IMG/VR virus record: IMGVR_UViG_3300017716_001697
Coordinates: 1 to 64,000 of that record
Source: a virus
Lineage: Duplodnaviria > Caudoviricetes
DNA length: 64,000 nt
Direction: 5' to 3' (one strand)
Shown: positions 9,992 through 33,780 of the stretch, in pieces
Layout of the letters: every line of letters starts with the position of its first letter
Position numbering within the stretch: position 1 is the first letter of the stretch
Made by a program: the position numbers and the translations under genes
Notes under the pieces: generated by a model
Seen by the model: only the letters and a program-made list of their open reading frames with translations
Database searches by the model: none
What the model was told of the DNA's origin: nothing

Positions 9992-10016
9992 AGTTCGATT
10001 CTCTATCCGGGTACCA
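9939..10016 (+). tRNA. tRNA-Val(TAC)
   Basis: Loop CTTACAA, CCA. Confidence 0.8.
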
Positions 10017-10021
10017 AATTA

Positions 10022-10176
10022 CGCGAGATAAAGACCGTTTGGGACGGGGACCGGATTGTTGACCGGCGTCGGATAAAGCAACGAGCTGCGGTGACTTATA
10101 GAAGGGCCCTTTTATTTGTTGCTTAAAATTTCAGTACGCTCCGACTTCAGTGGTTCGATTCCACATCTTGCGGCCA
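10022..10176 (+). tRNA. Giant tRNA-Asn(GTT)-like with ~90-nt variable-arm insert
   Basis: Acceptor CGCGAGA/TCTTGCG plus GCCA; loop TTGTTGA; T arm; folded insert. Confidence 0.55.
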
Positions 10177-10180
10177 AATT

Positions 10181-10277
10181 TTGTTTAGTGTAATGGTAGC
10201 ACGGGGAAGTCCGAGACACGGAAGTGGAGTAGGCAATCAAATGCCCTGAGGTGGTTCGATCCCACCAGCAAATTCAA
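10181..10277 (+). pseudogene. tRNA-like element with replaced anticodon arm
   Basis: D arm AGTGTAATGGTAGCAC and T arm GGTGGTTCGATCCCACC; no CCA. Confidence 0.45.
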
Positions 10278-10278
10278 T

Positions 10279-10621
10279 TTCAACATTCGAGCTAACGCTG
10301 GCAACAGAGGAAGTTCGGGACAAGCGCCAAGGGCGTGTGGGAGAGTGGTTATTTGATGGGGCATAGTGTCGGCCGGCTCAAATCTAATACGGAGTTGTTA
10401 GAAGCCAAGCAGAGATTTATCATCAAGCTAGATCCGCAAGGATGACAAAAGGTTCCTGAGACGGGTTCAACTCCCGGATGCTCCACCAAATAACTACTTG
10501 TTACACCACCGTGATACAGCTTGCAACACAAACAGAACCTGGGAACTCTTGGCTTATAGGTTCGGGTTGTGGCAAAGATTAATGTTAGCATAGAACAGAA
10601 TCCCGGCTACGGAATGTTGAA
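10279..10621 (+). ncRNA. rnpB: RNase P RNA (type-A catalytic domain)
   Basis: P1, P2 (GCTAAC/GTTAGC), P3, CR-I GAGGAAGTTCGGG, P5 CAAGC/GCTTG, P6 GCCAAG/CTTGGC, P15-16 with GGT, CR-IV AGATTAAT, CR-V ACAGAATCCCGGCTA. Confidence 0.85.
10358..10488 (+). ncRNA. Ala-acceptor tRNA/tmRNA-like domain nested in the RNase P RNA
   Basis: GGGGCAT/ATGCTCC with G3-U70, ACCA, GAC-GGGTTCAACTCCC T arm. Confidence 0.7.
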
Positions 10622-10629
10622 AACTTATA

Positions 10630-10707
10630 TGCTCGTCTACGCTAATTGGTAGTGCGACCTGTTTCAAACACAGATGGTTCTCGGTTCGAATCCGAGGTCG
10701 AGCACCA
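10630..10707 (+). tRNA. tRNA-Leu(CAA), short variable loop
   Basis: Loop TTCAAAC; 5-nt variable region; CCA. Confidence 0.75.
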
Positions 10708-10813: not shown

Positions 10814-10902
10814 GGGTTGTTAATGGGACGACTTAAGTCGTGTACTATGTATGCGCCGTCAGACCGGTCTTACAGTTGGTTCAAGTCCGACGCAACTCTC
10901 CA
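10814..10902 (+). pseudogene. tRNA-like element, atypical core
   Basis: Acceptor GGGTTGT/GCAACTC, T arm, CCA; no canonical anticodon arm. Confidence 0.45.
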
Positions 10903-11299: not shown

Positions 11300-11328
11300 T
11301 TGACATTACTGTAAATTACGTATATAAT
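11300..11328 (+). promoter_or_regulatory. sigma70-type promoter
   Basis: TTGACA-N17-TATAAT. Confidence 0.8.
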
Positions 11329-11339
11329 AAATACTACAC

Positions 11340-11413
11340 GGGCTGCTTCATGCTTTCAAGTAGAGAATACTTGGGCCGTCTAACAGTCGGGTCGCGCCCG
11401 TCGCGGTCCACCA
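11340..11413 (+). ncRNA. tRNA-sized Ala-acceptor RNA with non-canonical arms
   Basis: GGGCTGC/GCGGTCC with G3-U70 and ACCA, just after a promoter. Confidence 0.55.
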
Positions 11414-15683: not shown

Positions 15684-15717
15684 AAGCTCACTATCGCAAG
15701 GTAGTGGGCTTTTTTTA
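15684..15717 (+). terminator. Rho-independent terminator ending the tRNA array
   Basis: AAGCTCACTATC-GCAA-GGTAGTGGGCTT plus T-run. Confidence 0.8.
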
Positions 15718-15781
15718 TGGCCAATCAAAAATGCATACCTATAGAATTTCTGTGATAAATACGTATATTATAAGAGTACAA

Positions 15782-16558
15782 ATGAAATTACATAAACATA
15801 TTCTACTAGGATTAATTCCTGCACATATATTATTTGCTATACTAGCATATTCTTTACCTATAAATTTTGCTACAATTATTGTAGCAATTTTACTATGGAT
15901 TGTAATAGGCGGAATTGGACTCGATATTGGGCTTCATCGAATCTTATCACATAAACAATTTATAGTTAGTAAGCCACTTGAGCGATTAATTTCATTCTTG
16001 GGTGTACTATCTTTAAATGGCTCACCTATATCGTGGCGAGCATTACATGTAGGATATCACCATCCTTACTCGGACACGCCTAAAGATTTTCACAGTCCTG
16101 TAAACGGCGGATTCTTTAATGCATATGTATTATACATAAACCAGTTAGACAAAATGGTGTTAAGGGGGTGCAAAGAATTACTAAATGACAAGTATCAGGT
16201 ATTCTTCCATGAATATTATTTTACTATTATTTGGTTAATTGTAGCACTCGCCGGATTAATTTCTTTGCCATTGTGCCTGGCATTATTGACTGCAATGATT
16301 ATATCGTTTCATCAGACTGCGATTGTTAATGCTATGTGTCATTATGAACAGTTTGGTTATGCGACATTTGAAACAAAGGATAGATCACGTAATATAAAAT
16401 GGTTGGGATATATTACATTTGGACTGGCATTACATAATAATCATCACATGTATCCGGCCGCTGCGAATTATGCGATGTCGCCCGGTGAATACGATGTGGG
16501 ATACAGACTAGCTAAATTTATAGGGCTTACTGAGAATAAAGATGGTAAATATACTTAA
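15782..16558 (+). CDS. Membrane fatty-acid (acyl-CoA delta-9-like) desaturase
   Basis: His boxes HRILSH, HVGYHH, HNNHH; TM helices. Confidence 0.88.
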   Translation: MKLHKHILLGLIPAHILFAILAYSLPINFATIIVAILLWIVIGGIGLDIGLHRILSHKQFIVSKPLERLISFLGVLSLNGSPISWRALHVGYHHPYSDTPKDFHSPVNGGFFNAYVLYINQLDKMVLRGCKELLNDKYQVFFHEYYFTIIWLIVALAGLISLPLCLALLTAMIISFHQTAIVNAMCHYEQFGYATFETKDRSRNIKWLGYITFGLALHNNHHMYPAAANYAMSPGEYDVGYRLAKFIGLTENKDGKYT

Positions 16559-16573
16559 ACACAAAGGAGTACT

Positions 16574-16789
16574 ATGAAAGATTATACTGAATTAATGAAC
16601 GCTGATAGATATGACCTGGTATCTAATGATGACAATTCCGAGATGGAATTCGTTGTCGGTACAGCATATCAGTGGGGCGAACTAATGGATGCGCTGATTG
16701 ATTGGAATAAACTTGTTGGTAATGAAGAGCGCGCCGCTTATCTAATGATCTGCAAAGACGACAAGGCATATTATTTTTCAGATATTTAA
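16574..16789 (+). CDS. Small acidic hypothetical protein
   Basis: AAGGAG RBS. Confidence 0.7.
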   Translation: MKDYTELMNADRYDLVSNDDNSEMEFVVGTAYQWGELMDALIDWNKLVGNEERAAYLMICKDDKAYYFSDI

Positions 16790-16799
16790 GCTGTAATTA

Positions 16800-17381
16800 G
16801 TGCGAACATTAGATAATTGCAGCCCGTATTATGTGTCATTTAGTCACGAATCTCTAGACGACATAGTTCGATTAGCAACATCTCTAGAGACACGAGAATG
16901 GCACCGAAATCGAATATTTTCTAAAGAAGTATTGCCACCACATATAACTGAGCAGATATTAAACTACGTGCCGTATGCTAGGGAATTGGGCCTAACGACT
17001 ACTCGTGCAGCGATATTCATATCACAACCTGGGTTTTATTATCGCGCACATAAGGACGGCCTGCGCTGCGGTTTTGGTATAAATTATCCGTTAGTTGTGA
17101 AAGACGCACTATGTAAAACTAATTGGTACAGCGATGATGTTGCTGATAGTTACCCTCTTGATTTATGCGATGGTCGCAGTAGAGAACTATCGGGCTTTGA
17201 TAAATCTTTGCATACGCCGGTGTACACAGCGACATTGCAACCCAACACAGGGGTATTGTTTAATACAGATATATATCATGACTGGGATAATAGTGCGTCG
17301 GGCAATGTTAGGGTAATAATGTCGTTGCGCTCATCTCTTGACATATCATATGACTCTGCAAAGTCTATACTAGGCATATAG
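16800..17381 (+). CDS. 2OG-Fe(II) oxygenase/cupin-like protein
   Basis: HKD...NTDIYHDW...R pattern. Confidence 0.6.
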   Translation: MRTLDNCSPYYVSFSHESLDDIVRLATSLETREWHRNRIFSKEVLPPHITEQILNYVPYARELGLTTTRAAIFISQPGFYYRAHKDGLRCGFGINYPLVVKDALCKTNWYSDDVADSYPLDLCDGRSRELSGFDKSLHTPVYTATLQPNTGVLFNTDIYHDWDNSASGNVRVIMSLRSSLDISYDSAKSILGI

Positions 17382-17383
17382 AT

Positions 17384-19231
17384 ATGCGTAAAAAGAATGT
17401 ATATTTGCTGTCGATTCCGTCAGCCACACCGCTCTACTTGCCACTATTTTGGGCCAGTGCAAAGACATACTACGAGACTCACGGCAAATACCCAGACGAG
17501 TATAATTGGGTATTACCATATGCTGAGTTCATGGTTGGCTTGGATGCAATTAAGAAAGCAATAACGAACAATCCACCTGATATATTTGGGATCAGTCTGT
17601 ACGTCTGGAATTATACTATGAGCATGGAATTATGCAGTTGGGTTAAAGAGACTTGGCCTCATTGCATAGTTATAGTAGGTGGCCCTCATCAATACGTTAC
17701 ATTTCAGTCAGATTTCTTTCTTAGGTGCACTTTTGTAGATGCATGTTCCCCAGATACGGCGTACGGTGAATTAGTAATGACAGATTTATTAGACAATATA
17801 CAGGACGACGGTACAGTAAATTGGGGAAATGTTGAACAAATTCTTTATCCGTCAAAGCAACGTGGTATGATATTAACGGGGACCAAGAAAACTCGTGCAA
17901 GTGAATTTGACTGGTCCTTTAGCGCATATTCAGCACAATTGGCTAGTATGCATAGATACGTTGATATTAAAAAAATATGCAGGCCTAATGCCTCGTTGGG
18001 CATCAGGATAGAAACCACCCGTGGTTGCCCATATCAGTGCACATATTGCGATTGGGGCGGTACGCTAGGTTCTAAAATGGCTAAAAAAACAGATGATGCA
18101 ATTAATGGTGATCTTAGTGTGTTATCTCTTGCTGAATTTGATATCTCCATCATTCATTTCTGTGATAGTAATACAGGCATCTTTGGTAAGAGAGATGTCG
18201 ACACATTTAGACTAATGGTGGAAAAGACTAACTGCCTTGGTGATAATCGCCCCGTAGTAAATATCTCAGGATGGGCAAAATCAACTGTGCATCTTAAATA
18301 CATCAAAGAAATATTAGAGGTGACAGCATCAACGGGATTAATTGATGCACTAAAAATCTCGATACAGACATTCGATTCGTCATCGTTGGTTAATGTAAAG
18401 AGGACTGACATAGCAGCAGATGAATATTTTATGTTAGGTGATTATGCCAGATCTCTAGGATGCACCATAATAGCTGAAATGATAATGGGGTTTCCTGGAC
18501 TAACACTAGACAAGTTCTATAAAGAATTTGATCAACCGTATGAGCGCGATATTGAAGTTAGGTTCTACGAATGGCAATTGCTTCCACAATCCGAAGCATA
18601 TTCGCCGGACTATCGAAAACAATTTAAACTTGGTACAGCAGTGAATAATAACAGGACACCGGAATCTATATTCAATATAGCCAACGAAACAGTGGTAGAA
18701 TCTTATTCATATTCGAGAAATGATTATGCAGAGATGATGACTGTATATTCATTATATATTCTTATCACCATAGGGGAAATATATTCTAAATCCATACAAC
18801 AATTGCTTGACAGAAACGGCTGGCGCATAAGCGATTTCTTAAAAGAATTTCACCATACATGCTATCCGCTTCTAGAGGCAGTTAACGGTAAGAATAATGC
18901 AGCATTCAGGGAGCGTAAGATAGCCCATACCACAGTAAAGGACTCGACAAGCTCTTCACTGAGCACAATTTACTCGCTTCTGTTATTAGAAGATTTTTGG
19001 GAAGAAACAGAAACGCAGGCACCTATAATCCGAGCATGGTTGTTAGCTGAAGGCGCAGAGTCGAGTACCGTTGATTCCGAGTATCTAGAATTAACCACTC
19101 TTACAGAAGATGTTATCGTTGCACGCCGCGCGCGATTTATTGATGCTAATAAAATTCGAACCAAGAAGAAGATTGACAAATCTTTATTCACTAACAGCCT
19201 GGCCTCGACGCACGGGCTAAATGCTAGATGA
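17384..19231 (+). CDS. B12-binding-type radical SAM protein
   Basis: PDIFGISLYVWN N-terminal domain; ETTRGCPYQCTYCDW. Confidence 0.85.
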   Translation: MRKKNVYLLSIPSATPLYLPLFWASAKTYYETHGKYPDEYNWVLPYAEFMVGLDAIKKAITNNPPDIFGISLYVWNYTMSMELCSWVKETWPHCIVIVGGPHQYVTFQSDFFLRCTFVDACSPDTAYGELVMTDLLDNIQDDGTVNWGNVEQILYPSKQRGMILTGTKKTRASEFDWSFSAYSAQLASMHRYVDIKKICRPNASLGIRIETTRGCPYQCTYCDWGGTLGSKMAKKTDDAINGDLSVLSLAEFDISIIHFCDSNTGIFGKRDVDTFRLMVEKTNCLGDNRPVVNISGWAKSTVHLKYIKEILEVTASTGLIDALKISIQTFDSSSLVNVKRTDIAADEYFMLGDYARSLGCTIIAEMIMGFPGLTLDKFYKEFDQPYERDIEVRFYEWQLLPQSEAYSPDYRKQFKLGTAVNNNRTPESIFNIANETVVESYSYSRNDYAEMMTVYSLYILITIGEIYSKSIQQLLDRNGWRISDFLKEFHHTCYPLLEAVNGKNNAAFRERKIAHTTVKDSTSSSLSTIYSLLLLEDFWEETETQAPIIRAWLLAEGAESSTVDSEYLELTTLTEDVIVARRARFIDANKIRTKKKIDKSLFTNSLASTHGLNAR

Positions 19232-19771
19232 TGTATCGAATACAAGGAATGTTAAATCTTTGGTTGAGTTGTTTTTGTATGCGTGTGGCGCCCTGGCATT
19301 GAAATCTACAATACTATACCTGAACTCGTCTACTGTTTTAAATTCATCATCCATGTATATACTTGCATCACTGGGTATATCTAAGTAAAGTTGATAACGG
19401 TGTGCCACTATGTCGAAATATGGACCGGTGGAATCGGTATGTTTATCAATTGATTCGTCCGGCTGTAGCTTGTGCCAGAACACTCTTAGTACTGTTTCAT
19501 TGCCGGCAATTCTGTTGATTATGCCATTAATGACAGGAAACATATTTAATCGGTCGACTAGTATAATATGTGCACGATCAACAATCTGCAACCAACATGT
19601 CTTGCCGTGTCTTAGTGCTCCGGTTCGGTTGTAAGTATCTGCATACTCACCCCAGTGCTCTCTAAAGACATGTTGTCCCCACCAGTCGGCATCTATTGCA
19701 GACAATTCGTTGTTAATGTTATGCACATCGGATGTGCTTAGTTTTTCTATAATAGTGGATTTTACAATCAT
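19217..19771 (-). CDS. Aspartyl/asparaginyl beta-hydroxylase-like oxygenase
   Basis: IDKHTD...PHAYKN. Confidence 0.65.
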   Translation of the reverse strand: MIVKSTIIEKLSTSDVHNINNELSAIDADWWGQHVFREHWGEYADTYNRTGALRHGKTCWLQIVDRAHIILVDRLNMFPVINGIINRIAGNETVLRVFWHKLQPDESIDKHTDSTGPYFDIVAHRYQLYLDIPSDASIYMDDEFKTVDEFRYSIVDFNARAPHAYKNNSTKDLTFLVFDTSSSI

Positions 19772-19777
19772 ACTAGC

Positions 19778-19800
19778 TATTTATCATGTGGTGATAAATA
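19778..19800. promoter_or_regulatory. Back-to-back ATAAATA late-type promoters
   Basis: TATTTAT and ATAAATA between divergent genes; same arrangement at 29323-29355. Confidence 0.65.
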
Positions 19801-19811
19801 CATGATAACTG

Positions 19812-20102
19812 ATGAGGACTAACATGTATACAGTAACTAGAGTTGACACACGCCCTGATGTCAATGTGCCATTTTTCACAATAACTGCAACTCCCGATAC
19901 AACGGCGCTAATTGCCGAAGTAACTATCGAGACAACGGTATCACCTGATGGGTTAGTACAGACAAATAACTTCACCTGGCCTACGCAGGAACTATTTGTT
20001 CTGTTTATTAACAATTCATTTATTATACAAGACGTTGTGGCACCGCGCATTAACTACAATGCAGCTAACATGATAACATCGGCGTTTACTTACCCTGTCT
20101 AG
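19812..20102 (+). CDS. Hypothetical late protein
   Basis: GAGG RBS, ATAAATA upstream. Confidence 0.7.
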   Translation: MRTNMYTVTRVDTRPDVNVPFFTITATPDTTALIAEVTIETTVSPDGLVQTNNFTWPTQELFVLFINNSFIIQDVVAPRINYNAANMITSAFTYPV

Positions 20103-20108
20103 TAACTA

Positions 20109-20801
20109 ATGAAAATAGGATTCTATGGGCATAGTATAGCTAGCTGGGCGAATAGTCCGAACAATGAAAGTTTTATCGACAAGATAAGATTGAAATATTC
20201 AGCTGACATTGTTAACCTTGGCGTACCACAGGGCAGTGAGGAACGAATTCTGTTTGACCTAAAGAAGACCAAAGAGATAGATGTGGCAATTATATTCCAC
20301 AGTCTAATAAGATATATTTTTATTCCCGGTGCAGACAGAGACCTAAGCATACGTACTGTTCCAGCCAAGAAGGCTGGCGTATTGTGGACAGAAAGTAATA
20401 TGCAGGTACCCACACAAGAGCAATTTGATAAAGAATTTTTTTCGTATTCAAATCTTAAAGATGTGTTTGGAACGCCAGAAGAATTTTGTAATGCAATGAT
20501 TACATATAAGGAATATTTTCATCACCCGGATCTTTTAACTAACAGATTTCATTCTGCTGTCTTGTTGATCGACAATTACCTGTTAAATAAGAATATAACA
20601 GTATTGCACGCTATAACACCAAATCCGGCAATATTCCCGGCGTGGCTAGAAATTAAATCAGGTACAGTAGATTCCGAATTATTACCGATGTCGGGTAAAA
20701 TGTCGATAGTGGGTGAGAAATTTCCTAATAATCTTGATGCTGCCGGCAATGATTTTGTGTTTGATAGAATAGACTCCTGGTTACAACGCAGTTCGTGGTA
20801 G
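20109..20801 (+). CDS. SGNH/GDSL-like hydrolase or acyltransferase
   Basis: IGFYGHS...NLGVPQGS... Confidence 0.5.
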   Translation: MKIGFYGHSIASWANSPNNESFIDKIRLKYSADIVNLGVPQGSEERILFDLKKTKEIDVAIIFHSLIRYIFIPGADRDLSIRTVPAKKAGVLWTESNMQVPTQEQFDKEFFSYSNLKDVFGTPEEFCNAMITYKEYFHHPDLLTNRFHSAVLLIDNYLLNKNITVLHAITPNPAIFPAWLEIKSGTVDSELLPMSGKMSIVGEKFPNNLDAAGNDFVFDRIDSWLQRSSW

Positions 20802-20861
20802 AGAGGTCATACGCCGGTGTGAAATCCCGGAGACGGAGGTTCGAATCCCCCGGCTGCTCCA
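20788..20861 (+). tRNA. tRNA, probably Phe(GAA), overlapping a CDS stop
   Basis: Anticodon arm like tRNA-Phe at 8451; T arm; CCA. Confidence 0.55.
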
Positions 20862-20870
20862 TTTATACAA

Positions 20871-21323
20871 ATGATTGAACTTATTCAAATAAATTTTGAT
20901 GATATACTATCTGTGTGGTCTACTAAATTGTGGCCTACACGGACATCGACTATAGAATCACACAGTGCGATGATTTATAATTCTGATAAATTCGATACAG
21001 GTAATTTTTTATTGCCGGCCTGGTATTATGGGTTATATGAGGATAATACGCTAATAGGAGTCAACAGCGGCCACCTGTGCACCGATGGTAGTACAAGGTC
21101 GCGTGGACTTTGGGTCGATCCCGAATACCGCGGAAAAGGTTATGGAAAATTATTGTTGTGTGCTATAATACATGTTGCAATAACGGCTGACTCTAAATTC
21201 TTGTGGAGTTTTCCACGAAAGACATCATGGCATACGTACGAATCTGCGGGATTTATCTTAACCTCAGAGTGGTCCAGCAGTGAGACAAGCGATGCCAATG
21301 CTTATTGCTATCTAACATTTTAA
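20871..21323 (+). CDS. GNAT acetyltransferase
   Basis: GLWVDPEYRGKGYGKLL acetyl-CoA motif. Confidence 0.85.
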   Translation: MIELIQINFDDILSVWSTKLWPTRTSTIESHSAMIYNSDKFDTGNFLLPAWYYGLYEDNTLIGVNSGHLCTDGSTRSRGLWVDPEYRGKGYGKLLLCAIIHVAITADSKFLWSFPRKTSWHTYESAGFILTSEWSSSETSDANAYCYLTF

Positions 21324-21333
21324 CCTGAATTTT

Positions 21334-22860
21334 ATGCCTGTAAATGCACTTATTTTTACGCAAGTTATGCAGACGCAATATGCGTATAGTCGAGCCCTGG
21401 GCGCATACCGGGTTGCTACAGAAATACGCAAGGCAGGATATACATGCCAGGTTATTGATTTATTTACGAAATTTTCTGATGAAGAAATGGACAAGATTCT
21501 TCATTCGTTTATTGGTACCGAGACACTGATGGTGGGATTTTCTGCAACATTCTACGAATATGTAGACGAGAGATTAGACACAATGCAGCAAGAGATATCG
21601 GGCAAGACAACACAGGTGCCCAATGCACATACCTTTACATTGAACTATCCGTATCATCAAGAACGCATGAAAATATGGTTTTCGAAGATGCGAGCCATAA
21701 ACCCTAATATAAAGATTGTGTTGGGCGGGTCAAAAGCAGGGAATCTTACAGGCGATTGTGATGCATACGCCGTAGGATATTGCGATCAGGCTACTGTTGA
21801 ATACATGAAATACCTTGATAAGAAGAATCCGTTTTTTCAATTTGAAACTATAAATGATAAGCAAATCGCATTCTATGGCGATAAATATACATCAAAATTT
21901 GAATTCACTACTAGCACAGTAGATTGGCACGAGAGTGATTATATTATGCATAATGAGACACTGCCTATAGAATTGGCTAGGGGGTGTATATTCAGCTGTA
22001 AGTTTTGTAGTTATCCGTTAAACGGCAAGAAAAAATTAGATTTTATAAAGACAGATAATGTGCTCAGGGATGAATTCTTGAGAAATTACAACGAATTCGG
22101 CATAACGAGGTATGTATATTGCGATGATACACATAATGATTCTGTTGAAAAATTGGAACGATTACATAAGGTTGCGACCAGTTTACCATTTGAAATTGAA
22201 TATGCAGCATACCTGAGGCACGATTTGATATATGCACATAAAGAGACTGCGGTACTATTGCGGGAATCCGGTCTACGATCTGCCATATTTGGTATCGAAA
22301 CATTAAACCACGAATCGGGTAAGGCAATTGGTAAAGGTATGCATCCTGAAAAATTAAAAGAGATGTTATATTGGCTAAGAGAGGACGTATGGAAGAACGA
22401 TGTGGCAATGGGTTCGGGATTTATTGTTGGGCTCCCGCATGATACACCGGAAACAATTAATGAATGGTCAAAATGGCTGCTTGATAAATCGTGCCCAATT
22501 GACTCATTTCACTTTGAACCATTGTACATAACAAACACGAAGATACATAACAAATTATGGAAATCTGAATTTGAAAAATCGTCAGACAAGTATGGCTATA
22601 AATTAGGAAAGAATGGATTCTGGGAAAACGAACACTATACATTTCACACAGCCGCCACGCACGCAAAACAATTGTTGAAGATTGCGTTTGATAACGACAG
22701 GTTTAGGTGCGCCGGATTTCCTATAATTATGTTCGCTAATCTAGGATTGGTTCCGAAAGATCTAATCGGTGTCAGTAGAACATCTATATTTAGGCAGGTA
22801 GAACAATTAAATAAAGCGTATATCGATCAGTATAAGGTTAGGTTACTTAACAACTTATGA
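21334..22860 (+). CDS. B12-binding-type radical SAM protein
   Basis: ELARGCIFSCKFC; DDTHND; FGIETL. Confidence 0.85.
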   Translation: MPVNALIFTQVMQTQYAYSRALGAYRVATEIRKAGYTCQVIDLFTKFSDEEMDKILHSFIGTETLMVGFSATFYEYVDERLDTMQQEISGKTTQVPNAHTFTLNYPYHQERMKIWFSKMRAINPNIKIVLGGSKAGNLTGDCDAYAVGYCDQATVEYMKYLDKKNPFFQFETINDKQIAFYGDKYTSKFEFTTSTVDWHESDYIMHNETLPIELARGCIFSCKFCSYPLNGKKKLDFIKTDNVLRDEFLRNYNEFGITRYVYCDDTHNDSVEKLERLHKVATSLPFEIEYAAYLRHDLIYAHKETAVLLRESGLRSAIFGIETLNHESGKAIGKGMHPEKLKEMLYWLREDVWKNDVAMGSGFIVGLPHDTPETINEWSKWLLDKSCPIDSFHFEPLYITNTKIHNKLWKSEFEKSSDKYGYKLGKNGFWENEHYTFHTAATHAKQLLKIAFDNDRFRCAGFPIIMFANLGLVPKDLIGVSRTSIFRQVEQLNKAYIDQYKVRLLNNL

Positions 22861-23402
22861 TAGAAGCATCCAAGACAATTTATCTATCTAACATATACAT
22901 AGACCGCATGGTACGTAATATATCTAGTATATTACATGATTGCAGGTTAATGGAGATAGAACGATATTATATGTTTTCTCGTGATGTGAATGGGTGTTCT
23001 CTAGCTCAGGCAAGAAATAACTCTATCGAGTTAGATATTCAAGTGTCAAAACTCATTGCTGCATTATCTGCTGACCCACTATTATCTGGCATGACAATTG
23101 TTGAGCAGGGTATTGCGTTTAACAATCAGAACCCTGGCAGGATAATAAATGATCGCGTAGAGGCGTATCATCTTTTAGATACTACTGCCAGACAAGTAAG
23201 GGTACAGATATCCGGAACATCAATGATAGGCAGAGATATGTTGATCACTGGTAATGCATACATTGTGGATAATGTGACACATAATCAGTTCTTCGCATCG
23301 GATCAATGCATGCAATTGGTATTTAATTATCTTAGCATCACCGAGACAAGAAAACCGTGGGAATTATGGAAATCTAGTACAGGAGAGATACATGGGAGTT
23401 AA
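22857..23402 (+). CDS. Hypothetical protein (possible degenerate oxygenase fold)
   Basis: Translationally coupled ORF in island. Confidence 0.6.
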   Translation: MIEASKTIYLSNIYIDRMVRNISSILHDCRLMEIERYYMFSRDVNGCSLAQARNNSIELDIQVSKLIAALSADPLLSGMTIVEQGIAFNNQNPGRIINDRVEAYHLLDTTARQVRVQISGTSMIGRDMLITGNAYIVDNVTHNQFFASDQCMQLVFNYLSITETRKPWELWKSSTGEIHGS

Positions 23403-24939
23403 TGCGGTAATATTTACTGATTATTCGGCTCGGGGATTTATTAGATACAGCGGTGCATACACAATTGCATCTGTATTAAGAGAACACGGGTATACAGTTC
23501 AGGTCATTGATTATTTCTTGCTAGCAGGCCCTGATCGTGTAAACGCGGCTATCGACAAATATGTCGGCAGTGAAACATTATTTGTGGGATTTTCTACAAC
23601 ATTTATGAATTTGTTTTCAGACTATATAGAGGAATCGAAAGTAAATGACTCTATGTACAATTTCCACAATATTGTTAAAGTAGGATACGGGGCATCATCG
23701 GTGCCCGGATTCGCATTCGGCGTGCCATTGTCGGACATAGACATGGATGCGCTAAAACGCCGAATACAGAATTTAAATCCTAAGACTAAATTAGTAATGG
23801 GTGGCGGCAAAGCCGAATTCCATAAACAAAAGCAGATGGATGCATTTATATTAGGGTATGCAGACAATTCTATAATACAATATGTTAGATTCCTTGAAGG
23901 CAAGAATCCATTCTTCCAATATACTGACCTAGGAAACAACCAGATATCGGTTGATAAGGATATAGATGCTACAGGGTACGATTTCGTTCATGCAGCAACA
24001 AGATATCATGAGAGTGATATGATACGCCCTGGCGAATTATTGCCAATTGAAATTAGTAGGGGATGCATATTTAAGTGCAAATTTTGTGCCTTCAGGATGA
24101 TCGGTAGAAAGAAGAATGATTACACAAAAACAACTGACACCTTGTATGCAGAGATGATGTACAATTATGAAAAATTTGGGACAACTAAATATTCATTCGC
24201 TGATGACACGTACAATGAATCTGTACAAAAGATAACAGATCTTGCTGAGATGTTTCGGCGACTGCCGTTTAAGATAGAATTTGTTGCATACTTGAGACAT
24301 GATCTTATTCATCGGTATCCTGAGATGGCGGATATACTTAAAGAGAGCGGATTGAAGACCGCGGTCTTCGGTATAGAAACACTCAATCATGAATCCGGTA
24401 AAATAATTGGAAAAGGATTGCACCCCGAGAAGACACGGGAAATGCTACAATGGTTAAGAGATGATAAAAAATGGAAAAATGATATAATAACCCATTCTGG
24501 GTTTATTATAGGTCTGCCCAAAGATTCCAGGGATTCGGCAAATAAATGGATAGAAGAATTGATGGATTTTAAATATCCATTAGACACGTTTACTATAAAT
24601 TCCCTTAATTTAAGGCCTACAGCAACACGACTATCTAAATCTGAATTCGAATTAAATTATAAGGATTATGGATATTATTTCGATCCAAGTAAGTCTGCTA
24701 GCTGGATAAATGAATACTGGCAATTCGAAGATGCTCATATGCTTGCTGAATCTATGCAATCGTACGCTGATCACATGGGCAGAACAAAATTGCGGGCATG
24801 GCAACCAATGACTATGCGTAATTATGGGTACGATTGGGAGTACATAAATCATGTATCATCATCAGCATTTAACAAAGATATCTTTTACAAAACCGTCGAG
24901 TGGGCAGACGATTATTATAAGAAAATATTATCAGCATGA
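23392..24939 (+). CDS. B12-binding-type radical SAM protein (paralogue of 21334)
   Basis: EISRGCIFKCKFC; DDTYNE; FGIETL. Confidence 0.85.
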   Translation: MGVNAVIFTDYSARGFIRYSGAYTIASVLREHGYTVQVIDYFLLAGPDRVNAAIDKYVGSETLFVGFSTTFMNLFSDYIEESKVNDSMYNFHNIVKVGYGASSVPGFAFGVPLSDIDMDALKRRIQNLNPKTKLVMGGGKAEFHKQKQMDAFILGYADNSIIQYVRFLEGKNPFFQYTDLGNNQISVDKDIDATGYDFVHAATRYHESDMIRPGELLPIEISRGCIFKCKFCAFRMIGRKKNDYTKTTDTLYAEMMYNYEKFGTTKYSFADDTYNESVQKITDLAEMFRRLPFKIEFVAYLRHDLIHRYPEMADILKESGLKTAVFGIETLNHESGKIIGKGLHPEKTREMLQWLRDDKKWKNDIITHSGFIIGLPKDSRDSANKWIEELMDFKYPLDTFTINSLNLRPTATRLSKSEFELNYKDYGYYFDPSKSASWINEYWQFEDAHMLAESMQSYADHMGRTKLRAWQPMTMRNYGYDWEYINHVSSSAFNKDIFYKTVEWADDYYKKILSA

Positions 24940-30052: not shown

Positions 30053-30526
30053 ATGAACAAGATATTCGCACTATCGATTGTTATAAGTTTATTGTGCCAT
30101 ATCGGTGTTGTTATATCTGCGATTACACCGCAAGAACCGATTAGTACTAGTGTTACAGCGCCAGAGAACCGAATGGCAATTAAGCTATTACCACCAGAGC
30201 AGTTAGCAACGATACGACCAGCATTTTTAAAATCTGATGAATATTATAAGCCGACGCACCATCCGTATAGCAAAGAAGGGATTTGTGAAGGCAAGGATAA
30301 GAATTACATCGGTATTGGCATGATGATTCAGCCCGGAACACGGTTGGTAATTAATGTGCCAGAGATGTATCCTGCGTATCGAGCAGGCATTCGGGTAAAT
30401 GATGTCATTGTGGACCCGTACGGTCCTGTAATTGACCGTGCCGGTTATATTGAATTCGGGGTAGAACGGGACAATGTTATATCTCGTGTACGAATCAAGG
30501 CAGAAAAGATATGTTATACTGGATAG
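30053..30526 (+). CDS. Membrane-anchored PDZ-like protein
   Basis: N-terminal hydrophobic segment; PAYRAGIRVNDVI. Confidence 0.55.
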   Translation: MNKIFALSIVISLLCHIGVVISAITPQEPISTSVTAPENRMAIKLLPPEQLATIRPAFLKSDEYYKPTHHPYSKEGICEGKDKNYIGIGMMIQPGTRLVINVPEMYPAYRAGIRVNDVIVDPYGPVIDRAGYIEFGVERDNVISRVRIKAEKICYTG

Positions 30527-30554
30527 TTGACACCTTAACGCTAAGTAGTATAAT
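30527..30554 (+). promoter_or_regulatory. sigma70 promoter of tmRNA
   Basis: TTGACA-N16-TATAAT. Confidence 0.75.
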
Positions 30555-30560
30555 AAAGGT

Positions 30561-30848
30561 ACTGTTGTAATCCCTTCGAAGCGAAGGCAGGCAAGACGCG
30601 GGTTCGAATCCCGCCAGGTCCACCAAAATCATATTCGAAAAATAAAATCCATAACACGTTATGGTGTGAGTATGATTCTGATGGGCCTGCTCCGGAAATC
30701 GATTGCGTGAGATAGTAGAGACGGCAACACGAGAGGCGATGGACGTAATCCAAGCAAAACTAGTAAATGCAAACGCAGATACATTCGCTCTTGTAGCCTA
30801 AGAAACTCAAAGCTGAGGTAGGACTTACCTTATAACCAAAACAACCAA
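30561..30848 (+). ncRNA. ssrA: Circularly permuted two-piece tmRNA
   Basis: Acceptor piece ends GACGCGGGTTCGAATCCCGCCAGGTCCACCA (30625); hairpin spacer; coding piece starts GGGCCTG (30683); tag ANADTFALVA* at 30769-30801. Confidence 0.92.
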
Positions 30849-30849
30849 T

Positions 30850-30872
30850 GGGGGCTTCGGCCCCTATTTTTA
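30850..30872 (+). terminator. Terminator after tmRNA
   Basis: GGGGC-TTCG-GCCCC plus T-run. Confidence 0.85.
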
Positions 30873-30918
30873 TGAATATAATGGTGTTTATTATATTAAA
30901 AATATAGATAAATATAGG

Positions 30919-33704: not shown

Positions 33705-33780
33705 GCGCCTTTAGCTCAGTTGGTAGAGCAGCGGATTCTAAATCTGTAGGTCAGGGGTTCGAGTCCCCTATCGCGCACCA
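33705..33780 (+). tRNA. Amber-suppressor tRNA (CTA)
   Basis: GCGGA-TTCTAAA-TCTGT anticodon arm; canonical D and T arms; CCA; two acceptor mismatches. Confidence 0.8.

Follow-up and report, generated by a model that had tools for sequence, protein, structure and literature searches.

Bacterial 23S ribosomal RNAs (rRNAs) carry intervening sequences, extended stem-loops that stand sporadically at helix tips and are excised without religation, leaving a fragmented RNA that is functional. The MALAT1 noncoding RNA contains a tRNA-like structure, mascRNA, that RNase P cuts from the longer transcript, and the type T RNase P RNA of Pyrobaculum is a natural minimal form in which the specificity domain (S-domain) is mostly lost. 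GOLLD, a large structured RNA of phages and prophages, lies in tRNA clusters and holds a predicted tRNA gene, according to PMC6582537, which cites the original description, and Frank, Harris and Pace in 1994 engineered conjugates of pre-tRNA and RNase P RNA in which substrate and ribozyme form one chain (cited in PMC11143913). Here we describe a 64,000-nucleotide (nt) window of phage DNA in which a genuine phage RNase P RNA gene (positions 10279-10621, plus strand) very probably contains a nested, autonomous gene for an alanine-type tRNA-like RNA (10358-10488, plus strand).

The window comprises the first 64 kb of IMG/VR record IMGVR_UViG_3300017716_001697, a 364,576-base-pair (bp) phage sequence with direct terminal repeats that is rated complete. 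On balance, we consider it probable that the arrangement is best explained by tRNA-like excision of the nested RNA from a phage RNase P RNA with a reduced S-domain.

The carrier gene and its nested element

The Rfam model RNaseP_arch aligned over its full length to positions 10279-10621 (27.8 bits, E = 4e-6; short of the gathering score, 84). The carrier likewise stayed under the gathering score of every other Rfam RNase P model, and at gathering thresholds Rfam made no RNase P RNA call here and left the 131-nt element uncalled as well. In the RNaseP_arch alignment, 137 S-domain positions were unaligned, and 197 nt stand there in the window RNA. Evidence for a 343-nt RNase P RNA gene comes from this end-to-end alignment, from homologues and from covariation in the core. 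Relatives of the phage were gathered via its large terminase; a P15 motif common to the window and these relatives led to 56 viral loci, a motif from conserved region V (CR-V) led to about 15 further distinct members, and 29 distinct RNase P RNA sequences made up the core alignment used for covariation.

In these 29 sequences, P1, P2, P3, P4, P5, a 4-bp P7-like stem and the inner P15 helix were paired nearly throughout, with two to five pair types per position. P1 joins 10279-10288 to 10612-10621 in 10 covarying bp, with up to four pair types per position in the family. The stretch holding CR-I and the 5' strand of P4 (10307-10320; GAGGAAGTTCGGGA, with a bulged U) agrees with the Rfam consensus GAGGAAAGUCCGGG and pairs with 10601-10608. 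P4 (AG-U-UCGGGA with UCCCGGCU, the U bulged) was paired in 29 of 29 sequences, and two of its positions had changed on both sides (GC to AU and GC to CG). The P15/L15 region (10525-10574), in which P15b covaries, has a CGGGTT (GGU) motif that aligned to cCGGGUa of the Rfam model. Positions 10577-10608 contain CR-IV (AGATTAATG, of the AGAUGAAUG type), the covarying 3' strand of P2 and CR-V (ACAGAATCCCGGCT), the two conserved regions matching the consensus AGAugAAUG and ACAGAACCCGGCUUA. The P1-P2-P3 framework is complete, and CR-I, CR-IV, CR-V, the GCAA of J5/15 and the GGU of L15 are all present in agreement with the Rfam consensus. Sequence and predicted structure place the carrier among the RNase P RNAs of the bacterial type A lineage, with predicted catalytic activity.

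The 364.6-kb genome has a single CR-I/CR-V pair, making this its sole RNase P RNA gene. We take the CGGGTT/GGU motif of L15 to be the binder of the tRNA 3'-CCA in type A RNase P, and its retention fits a phage in which 43 of 45 tRNA genes encode CCA. No gene for RnpA was found in the phage genome, so the ribozyme presumably works with the RNase P protein of the host. The carrier falls in the densest part of a tRNA array (the window has about 43 tRNA genes), 9 nt upstream of a tRNA-Leu(CAA) gene (10631-10707, plus strand). Because it lies inside the array, its ends are probably produced by tRNA processing; no strong promoter stands between the flanking tRNA-like genes and 10279.

The first-pass annotation, made from the sequence alone, had proposed an alanine-type element resembling an RNase P substrate inside the RNase P RNA, and each feature it listed is in place: a 12-bp helix, a 131-nt element, G3:U70, ACCA, a TTCAACT T arm and a U at -1. 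The helix closes a hairpin that we call Px and pairs AGTGGTTATTTG (10344-10355) with CAAATAACTACT (10487-10498), including one G-U pair. Within it, GGGGCAT (10358-10364) and ATGCTCC (10478-10484) form a 7-bp acceptor stem with G3:U70, followed by ACCA (A73-CCA; 10485-10488). Between the acceptor strands lie hairpin H1 (10383-10389 with 10396-10402), an invariant 23-mer (10409-10431), hairpin H2 with a GCAA loop (10432-10443) and, preceded by GAC, a T arm (CGGG/TTCAACT/CCCG; 10462-10476), all on the plus strand; the acceptor 5' strand is 96 nt from the T arm. A T stands at -1 (10357). C75 and A76 form the first two pairs of the closing helix, whose 3' strand overlaps them, which bears out the claim that the CCA is partly sequestered. 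RNAfold, applied to the whole 10279-10621 RNA (z = -3.2), recovered both the acceptor stem and the closing helix. The two ends of the Rfam model for transfer-messenger RNA (tmRNA) aligned exactly to 10358-10488 (16.5 bits, E = 1.4e-4; gathering score 47).

Searching viral contigs and metagenomes with the invariant 23-mer recovered further copies of the element, whereas an exact search of viral contigs with its 3' 26-mer gave nothing. A covariance model scored ten copies at 98-156 bits and everything else in 70 related viral records, mostly ordinary tRNAs, at 29.5 bits or less. In the model-fitted alignment of the ten copies, 95.7% of the cells were paired and 13 of 33 pairs had changed on both sides; 0 of 500 shuffles were as high and no slid control came near. 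Such an alignment leans to the model structure; a plain MAFFT alignment also shows the pairs of the acceptor, H1, H2 and the T stem. All ten copies have G3:U70, G1:C72 and A73, and nine have G2:C71, with compensatory changes at 2:71 and 6:67 in one copy (L202), so the acceptor and T-arm features that the first-pass annotation had singled out for a conservation check are conserved. Together, G3:U70, A73, G1:C72 and G2:C71 constitute the identity set of alanyl-tRNA synthetase (AlaRS), which predicts that the RNA can be charged. Like the element, 36 of the 45 phage tRNA genes have T at -1, as 43 have an encoded CCA. Two tracts are invariant, GUAGGUCGGC near the 5' end and the 23-mer. Nested copies differ from one another by compensatory changes (T stem CGGG/CCCG versus UGGG/CCCA; H2 AUCC/GGAU versus ACCC/GGGU), implying that selection acts on the structure while the element is nested.

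Several other identities were considered and rejected. The element is no canonical tRNA(Ala): it has no anticodon arm and no cloverleaf, ARAGORN and the Rfam tRNA model were silent at 10358-10488, and ARAGORN made no tRNA or tmRNA call on any of the insert-bearing ribozymes. A coding role for the 23-mer and its surroundings failed, as no frame is common to the ten copies and the apparently synonymous changes are compensatory H2 pairs. RNAalifold paired element positions 9-17, in the 5' tract, with the 23-mer, a helix that showed mismatches and no covariation. An antisense target of the 23-mer was sought in the phage genome, and chance 11-12-mers were all that appeared (7 non-self 11-mers against a shuffled mean of 2.8). 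A promoter reading (TTGTTA-17-TATCAT, 10395-10423) matches at 9 of 12 positions and its -35 box is not conserved; with 9 promoter-like sites in the region against 6.5 ± 2.3 in shuffles, there is no excess, and we keep this reading as a distant option.

Insertion sites and the phage RNase P RNA family

Three of the ten copies are free-standing in tRNA arrays, directly flanked by tRNAs (G003, L115 and L202); that in G003 is 74% identical to the window element and begins 5 nt after a tRNA. The other seven are nested in RNase P RNAs, so homologous phage genes do share the insertion, at three hairpin sites. Copies stand at the tip of Px in the window, L113 and L122; in L163, L164 and L201 they cap a small hairpin (ACAG...ACUGU; short in G002) that lies between P18 and CR-IV. 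The seventh, in L200, occupies an additional hairpin immediately preceding the P5 3' strand; that sequence stops 4 nt past the CCA, leaving the site half seen. All nested copies have the leader UAUUUGAY and the trailer AAAUA, which form 6-7 A/U-rich pairs followed by a 2x2 internal loop at -1/-2 and 73/74, exactly at the expected cleavage site. Free copies do not have this stem.

The same junctions occur in contigs of other metagenomes (L113 and L122), where the 12-bp closing helix has undergone compensatory changes, which speaks against chance as well as assembly chimerism. Because the features are conserved and recur in independent assemblies, neither of the two objections that the first-pass annotation had raised against itself, unconserved acceptor and T-arm features or a chimeric assembly, holds. 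Carriers of the element do not cluster on a tree of the ribozyme scaffolds, with which a single origin is still compatible; because the tree does not separate single from multiple gain, the three insertion sites are the better evidence of movement. Covariation and the invariant G3:U70 argue for an autonomous RNA gene residing in tolerant loops and against a replacement S-domain.

The stretch in which these hairpins lie is short in most of the family. From CR-I to P15 (the P4-P15 stretch) it measures 53-68 nt in most members, compared with about 140-160 nt in a minority of full forms. The window RNA has no full specificity domain (P7-P14 with CR-II and CR-III); the remnant consists of P5, a small hairpin, the P7-like stem (GUAG/CUAC, covarying with GUGG/CCAC), a GGAG...CGUUAAAC junction and Px. 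We considered naming Px as P12, and the flanking GGAG and GUUAAAC resemble either CR-II/CR-III or the P7/P10 strands of Escherichia coli; the choice being undecided, we use the neutral name. Most relatives have no full S-domain whether or not they carry the element, and two of the three sites lie outside Px, which contradicts the proposal that the element replaces the S-domain.

Px is often merely a stem with a GAAA loop. Its contents range from 4-nt loops through a 34-nt duplicated insert to unrelated modules of 100-150 nt on perfect 12-20-bp stems (L117, L129, L135, L164 and L200) and the tRNA-like element, and near-identical scaffolds can carry different cargo in Px (L113 versus L117; L163 versus L164). 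In L108, L119, L124, L126, L134 and L147, Px consists of a 17-nt unit (AAATTTACTTTGGTATT-like) duplicated in tandem, an arrangement conserved across several contigs. L115 has a different Px insert of 87 nt, GGGGUUUG...CAAACUCC-ACCA (GGGG...CUCCACCA), with G3:U70 and a 5-bp stem with a 7-nt loop at the position of the T arm. Its closing helix also has 12 bp, and a 2x2 loop at the junction again coincides with the expected cleavage site. This module is a singleton: a 30-mer search matched L115 alone, and a 14-mer search for relatives returned more than 120 random matches and was uninformative. The architecture of an acceptor module on a closing helix arose twice, in the 131-nt element and in the L115 module. 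Px is a loop that tolerates, or attracts, inserts, and the element is one of several unrelated modules found there. As in rRNA-type intervening sequences, it forms an extended stem-loop at the tip of a conserved helix and is sporadic among close relatives.

Found here in uncultivated phages only, the RNase P RNA lineage has about 60 distinct examples, all of them in tRNA arrays and mostly a few bases from neighboring tRNAs. RNAs of two relatives found through terminase scored 86 and 68.5 bits with RNaseP_bact_a, the bacterial type A model. Among five tested mini forms, only one reached E < 0.01 with any Rfam RNase P model. The window region and one full-size relative had no blastn match in 50,697 GenBank phage records. 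The P15 motif occurred in no cellular RNase P gene when one genome for each of 185,579 species was scanned. Four matches in that scan fell by chance in a protein-coding gene of Bacteroidetes metagenome-assembled genomes (MAGs), and another was a full-size RNase P of phage-like type, from a contig assigned to an archaeal MAG. Our limited literature search, from which absence cannot be concluded, found no paper on phage-encoded RNase P RNA, and RNase P goes unmentioned in the main survey of huge phages.

The family contains further unusual forms. The complete 369-kb relative G005 has a 111-nt RNase P RNA relic consisting of P1-P4, CR-I and CR-V (264188-264298, minus strand; L105 1501-1611), which recalls mitochondrial RNAs with P1 and P4 only. 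About 200 nt upstream of the P15 motif in L149, L153 and L154, a complete mini-type RNase P RNA directly adjoins a truncated one of the full-size type that spans the S-domain through L15; judging by these sequences, some phages hold, or held, both types in tandem. L327 (IMGVR_UViG_3300039159_000587, minus strand) has an RNase P RNA of about 375 nt from CR-I to CR-V with a large insert in the P15/L15 region, which may be a further expansion site. In L122, a 48-nt minihelix of acceptor and T arm (286-333; GGGGUG...CACUCC-ACCA, G3:U70) ends 4 nt before P1 of the ribozyme and resembles a tmRNA-style tRNA-like domain with nothing else attached. Just downstream of the free element in G003, L084 1385-1500 (minus strand) shares GATTACTT, AATC and TA-AGAGTA blocks with the P1/P2 parts of the mini RNase P of G005 and has neither GAGGAA nor ACAGAA; the resemblance is weak, and this may be a decayed ribozyme gene beside the 'free' element.

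Other tRNA-like stretches stand near the carrier in the window. Upstream are an element of about 164 nt (10013-10176) with an 8-bp acceptor (CGCGAGAU/AUCUUGCG), GCCA and a T arm, and a second (10181-10272) with a D arm, a T arm and a long internal insert, neither called by ARAGORN or Rfam. Between tRNA-Leu and the next open reading frame (ORF) lies another uncalled stretch (10815-10895; GGGUUGU...GCAACUC-UCCA, GGTTCAAGTCC T arm). The region 11300-11413 has a perfect sigma-70 promoter (TTGACA-17-TATAAT, 12 of 12 positions) and, 11 bases past it, a 74-nt element (GGGCUGC...GCGGUCC-ACCA, G3:U70) that is uncalled as a tRNA; its sequence marks it as a further alanine-type acceptor RNA, with a predicted promoter of its own. 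Farther away, the window contains a complete permuted (two-piece) tmRNA gene of betaproteobacterial type (30513-30892; 145 bits, tag ANADTFALVA), a hint that the host is betaproteobacterial. The tRNA at 33705-33780 has the anticodon CUA; labeled 'Pyl' by ARAGORN, it is an amber suppressor, and TAG may be recoded in part of the phage genes. A fatty-acid-desaturase-like ORF is followed by three B12-binding radical SAM proteins (15704-24939), and 51302-52735 encodes a DUF2828/DUF7788 protein.

Proposed release of the nested RNA and competing explanations

Starting from the observed identities, conservation, contexts and processing signals, we infer a series of cleavages, charging, two-piece activity and a later fate for the 131-nt RNA. 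The tRNA array, ribozyme included, would be transcribed as one precursor. RNase P, the host or the phage enzyme acting in trans, would cut at 10357/10358, an endonuclease resembling RNase III or RNase E would cut in or beside the 12-bp closing helix, and exonucleases would then trim to the CCA. The products would be a free RNA chargeable by AlaRS and an RNase P RNA in two pieces, held together by the closing helix and the tertiary fold and presumably paired with the host RNase P protein. In our judgment, excision of the element in just this way is an even call.

Release by the tRNA-processing machinery is the economical reading since the element resembles the pre-tRNAs of the phage, with T at -1 and an encoded CCA, and also exists as a stand-alone gene. 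Cleavage in trans is favored over self-cleavage because all three sites of attachment lie at the periphery, widely separated in the secondary structure. The composite helix (12 bp, 2x2 loop, 7 bp) can be likened to rRNA processing stems and to the 23S intervening sequences removed by RNase III. In the yeast mitochondrial RNase P RNA, two end fragments suffice in vitro (PMC3790967); as a fragmented RNase P RNA can be active, a two-piece ribozyme is feasible. The first-pass interpretation therefore survives in part: given the free-standing copies, release of an alanine-accepting RNA that leaves a two-piece ribozyme is plausible, whereas S-domain replacement is not.

Several points weigh against the predicted excision. 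C75 and A76 are paired within the closing helix, and RNase P generally acts poorly on substrates in which leader and trailer are paired beside the cleavage site. The site of the 3' endonuclease is not identifiable in the sequence, the model offers no explanation for the invariant 23-mer, and the 131-nt element alone is not unusually stable (z = -0.4). Nor does loop tolerance alone explain why seven of ten copies lie in RNase P RNA genes, at three sites; possible ties of the element to these genes are co-regulation, protection by the stem or a mobile module that prefers these hairpins.

A pairing of the CCA within the closing helix would suit an element that is never removed and that serves as a handle for a host protein (AlaRS, EF-Tu or RnpA) or as a substitute for the lost S-domain, as would the location of seven of ten copies inside RNase P RNAs and the compensatory changes by which nested copies keep their structure. 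We consider such an integral domain unlikely. The free-standing copies in tRNA arrays show an RNA working on its own, three attachment points cannot share one structural role, most family members manage without such an arm, and an exact ACCA with an internal loop at -1/-2 would be purposeless in a permanent helix.

The element and the other long-stemmed Px modules might instead be selfish or neutral insertions, mobile or akin to intervening sequences and of no benefit to the phage. Their sporadic presence among near-identical scaffolds (the L113/L117 and L163/L164 pairs), the perfect 15-20-bp closing stems of other inserts, the leader and trailer that accompany the element at all three sites and the unclustered carriers, compatible as these are with a single origin, all agree with this idea. 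However, the acceptor stem, T loop, 5' GUAGGUCGGC tract and 23-mer are strongly conserved among copies that otherwise differ by 10-25%, and copies are also kept free-standing in tRNA arrays. Strong conservation and free-standing copies point to a function of the element RNA itself, and an insertion without benefit is improbable; mobility and function can nonetheless coexist.

A substrate-like acceptor, T arm and ACCA covalently attached to an apparently competent catalytic core also invites the idea of a fusion that would cleave itself in cis, with cleavage acting as an activity switch. In the type A enzyme, the arms of the S-domain point away from the active site. Attachment at hairpin tips in three regions fits insertion tolerance better than docking geometry, and nothing speaks for a switch. 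The engineered pre-tRNA-RNase P RNA conjugates do self-cleave, to go by their citation in PMC11143913, but we judge self-cleavage of the natural element quite improbable.

The match of the Rfam tmRNA model to both ends, G3:U70, the T arm after GAC and the missing anticodon arm could indicate a miniature tmRNA that tags the products of stalled ribosomes. We regard this as very improbable: there is no conserved tag frame, the frames differing by copy and the variation following H2 pairs rather than codons; there are no pseudoknots; 16.5 bits compares poorly with a gathering score of 47, and ARAGORN calls no tmRNA; and the phage already has a complete two-piece tmRNA (30513-30870), with no gene for SmpB found in its genome. 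A decaying pseudogene or assembly artifact, which the sub-gathering Rfam score and the 111-nt remnant in a relative might suggest, has a negligible chance of being correct, given the same junctions in independent contigs, compensatory changes in the core helices of element-bearing genes and the status of the carrier as sole RNase P RNA gene of a complete genome.

Returning to excision by tRNA processing, we can offer a wider picture tentatively, as possible but doubtful. The ribozyme gene might be both landing pad and launch pad for an alanine-accepting module that needs RNase P for its release, a natural ribozyme-substrate fusion whose processing would yield a two-piece enzyme and couple the amount of tRNA-like RNA to that of the ribozyme, the module having moved, stem included, among at least three ribozyme hairpins.

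If confirmed, these results would mean that phages encode their own diverse lineage of RNase P RNA, which standard Rfam annotation misses. Most members would be natural, near-minimal ribozymes made of the catalytic domain only, a series for studying minimal RNase P and the choice of substrate without an S-domain. RNase P RNA would repeatedly carry, at different sites, an RNA of alanine identity that looks like its own substrate. Questions raised are how nested RNA genes are released, whether bacterial systems have a natural two-piece RNase P and what role the non-canonical alanine-type acceptor RNAs of jumbo phages play, with decoys, ribosome rescue and defense evasion as candidates.

Comparison with known systems

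The first-pass annotation knew of no described equivalent, and our limited literature search likewise found no published case of this enzyme with a nested look-alike of its substrate. The components are individually recognizable; it is their arrangement that is undescribed. The phage RNA is like bacterial type A RNase P RNA in its P1-P2-P3-P4 core, bulged U, CR-I, CR-IV and CR-V, J5/15 GCAA and P15 GGU, and like the yeast and Smittium mitochondrial RNAs, which are reduced to P1 and P4, in having lost most of the S-domain (PMC3790967). It differs from cellular and minimal RNase P RNAs in being phage-encoded, in sitting in tRNA arrays and in having hypervariable insertion sites that hold foreign modules.

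The element shares with the tRNA-like domain of tmRNA an acceptor of the form GGGG.../...CUCCACCA with G3:U70, a T arm and the lack of an anticodon arm, but it is 131 nt long and has no conserved tag frame, no pseudoknots and no analogue of the tmRNA-type D loop. In 23S intervening sequences and in MALAT1-mascRNA the carrier is another RNA, whereas here it is the RNase P RNA itself, and the cleavage is a predicted one. Conjugates of an RNase P substrate with its ribozyme are otherwise known solely as engineered constructs (PMC11143913), tethered beside the substrate-binding region to force cleavage in cis; the natural element instead stands at peripheral hairpin tips. Finally, unlike GOLLD, whose function is unknown, the carrier described here is the RNA of the enzyme that processes tRNA 5' ends, and its guest is a non-canonical tRNA.

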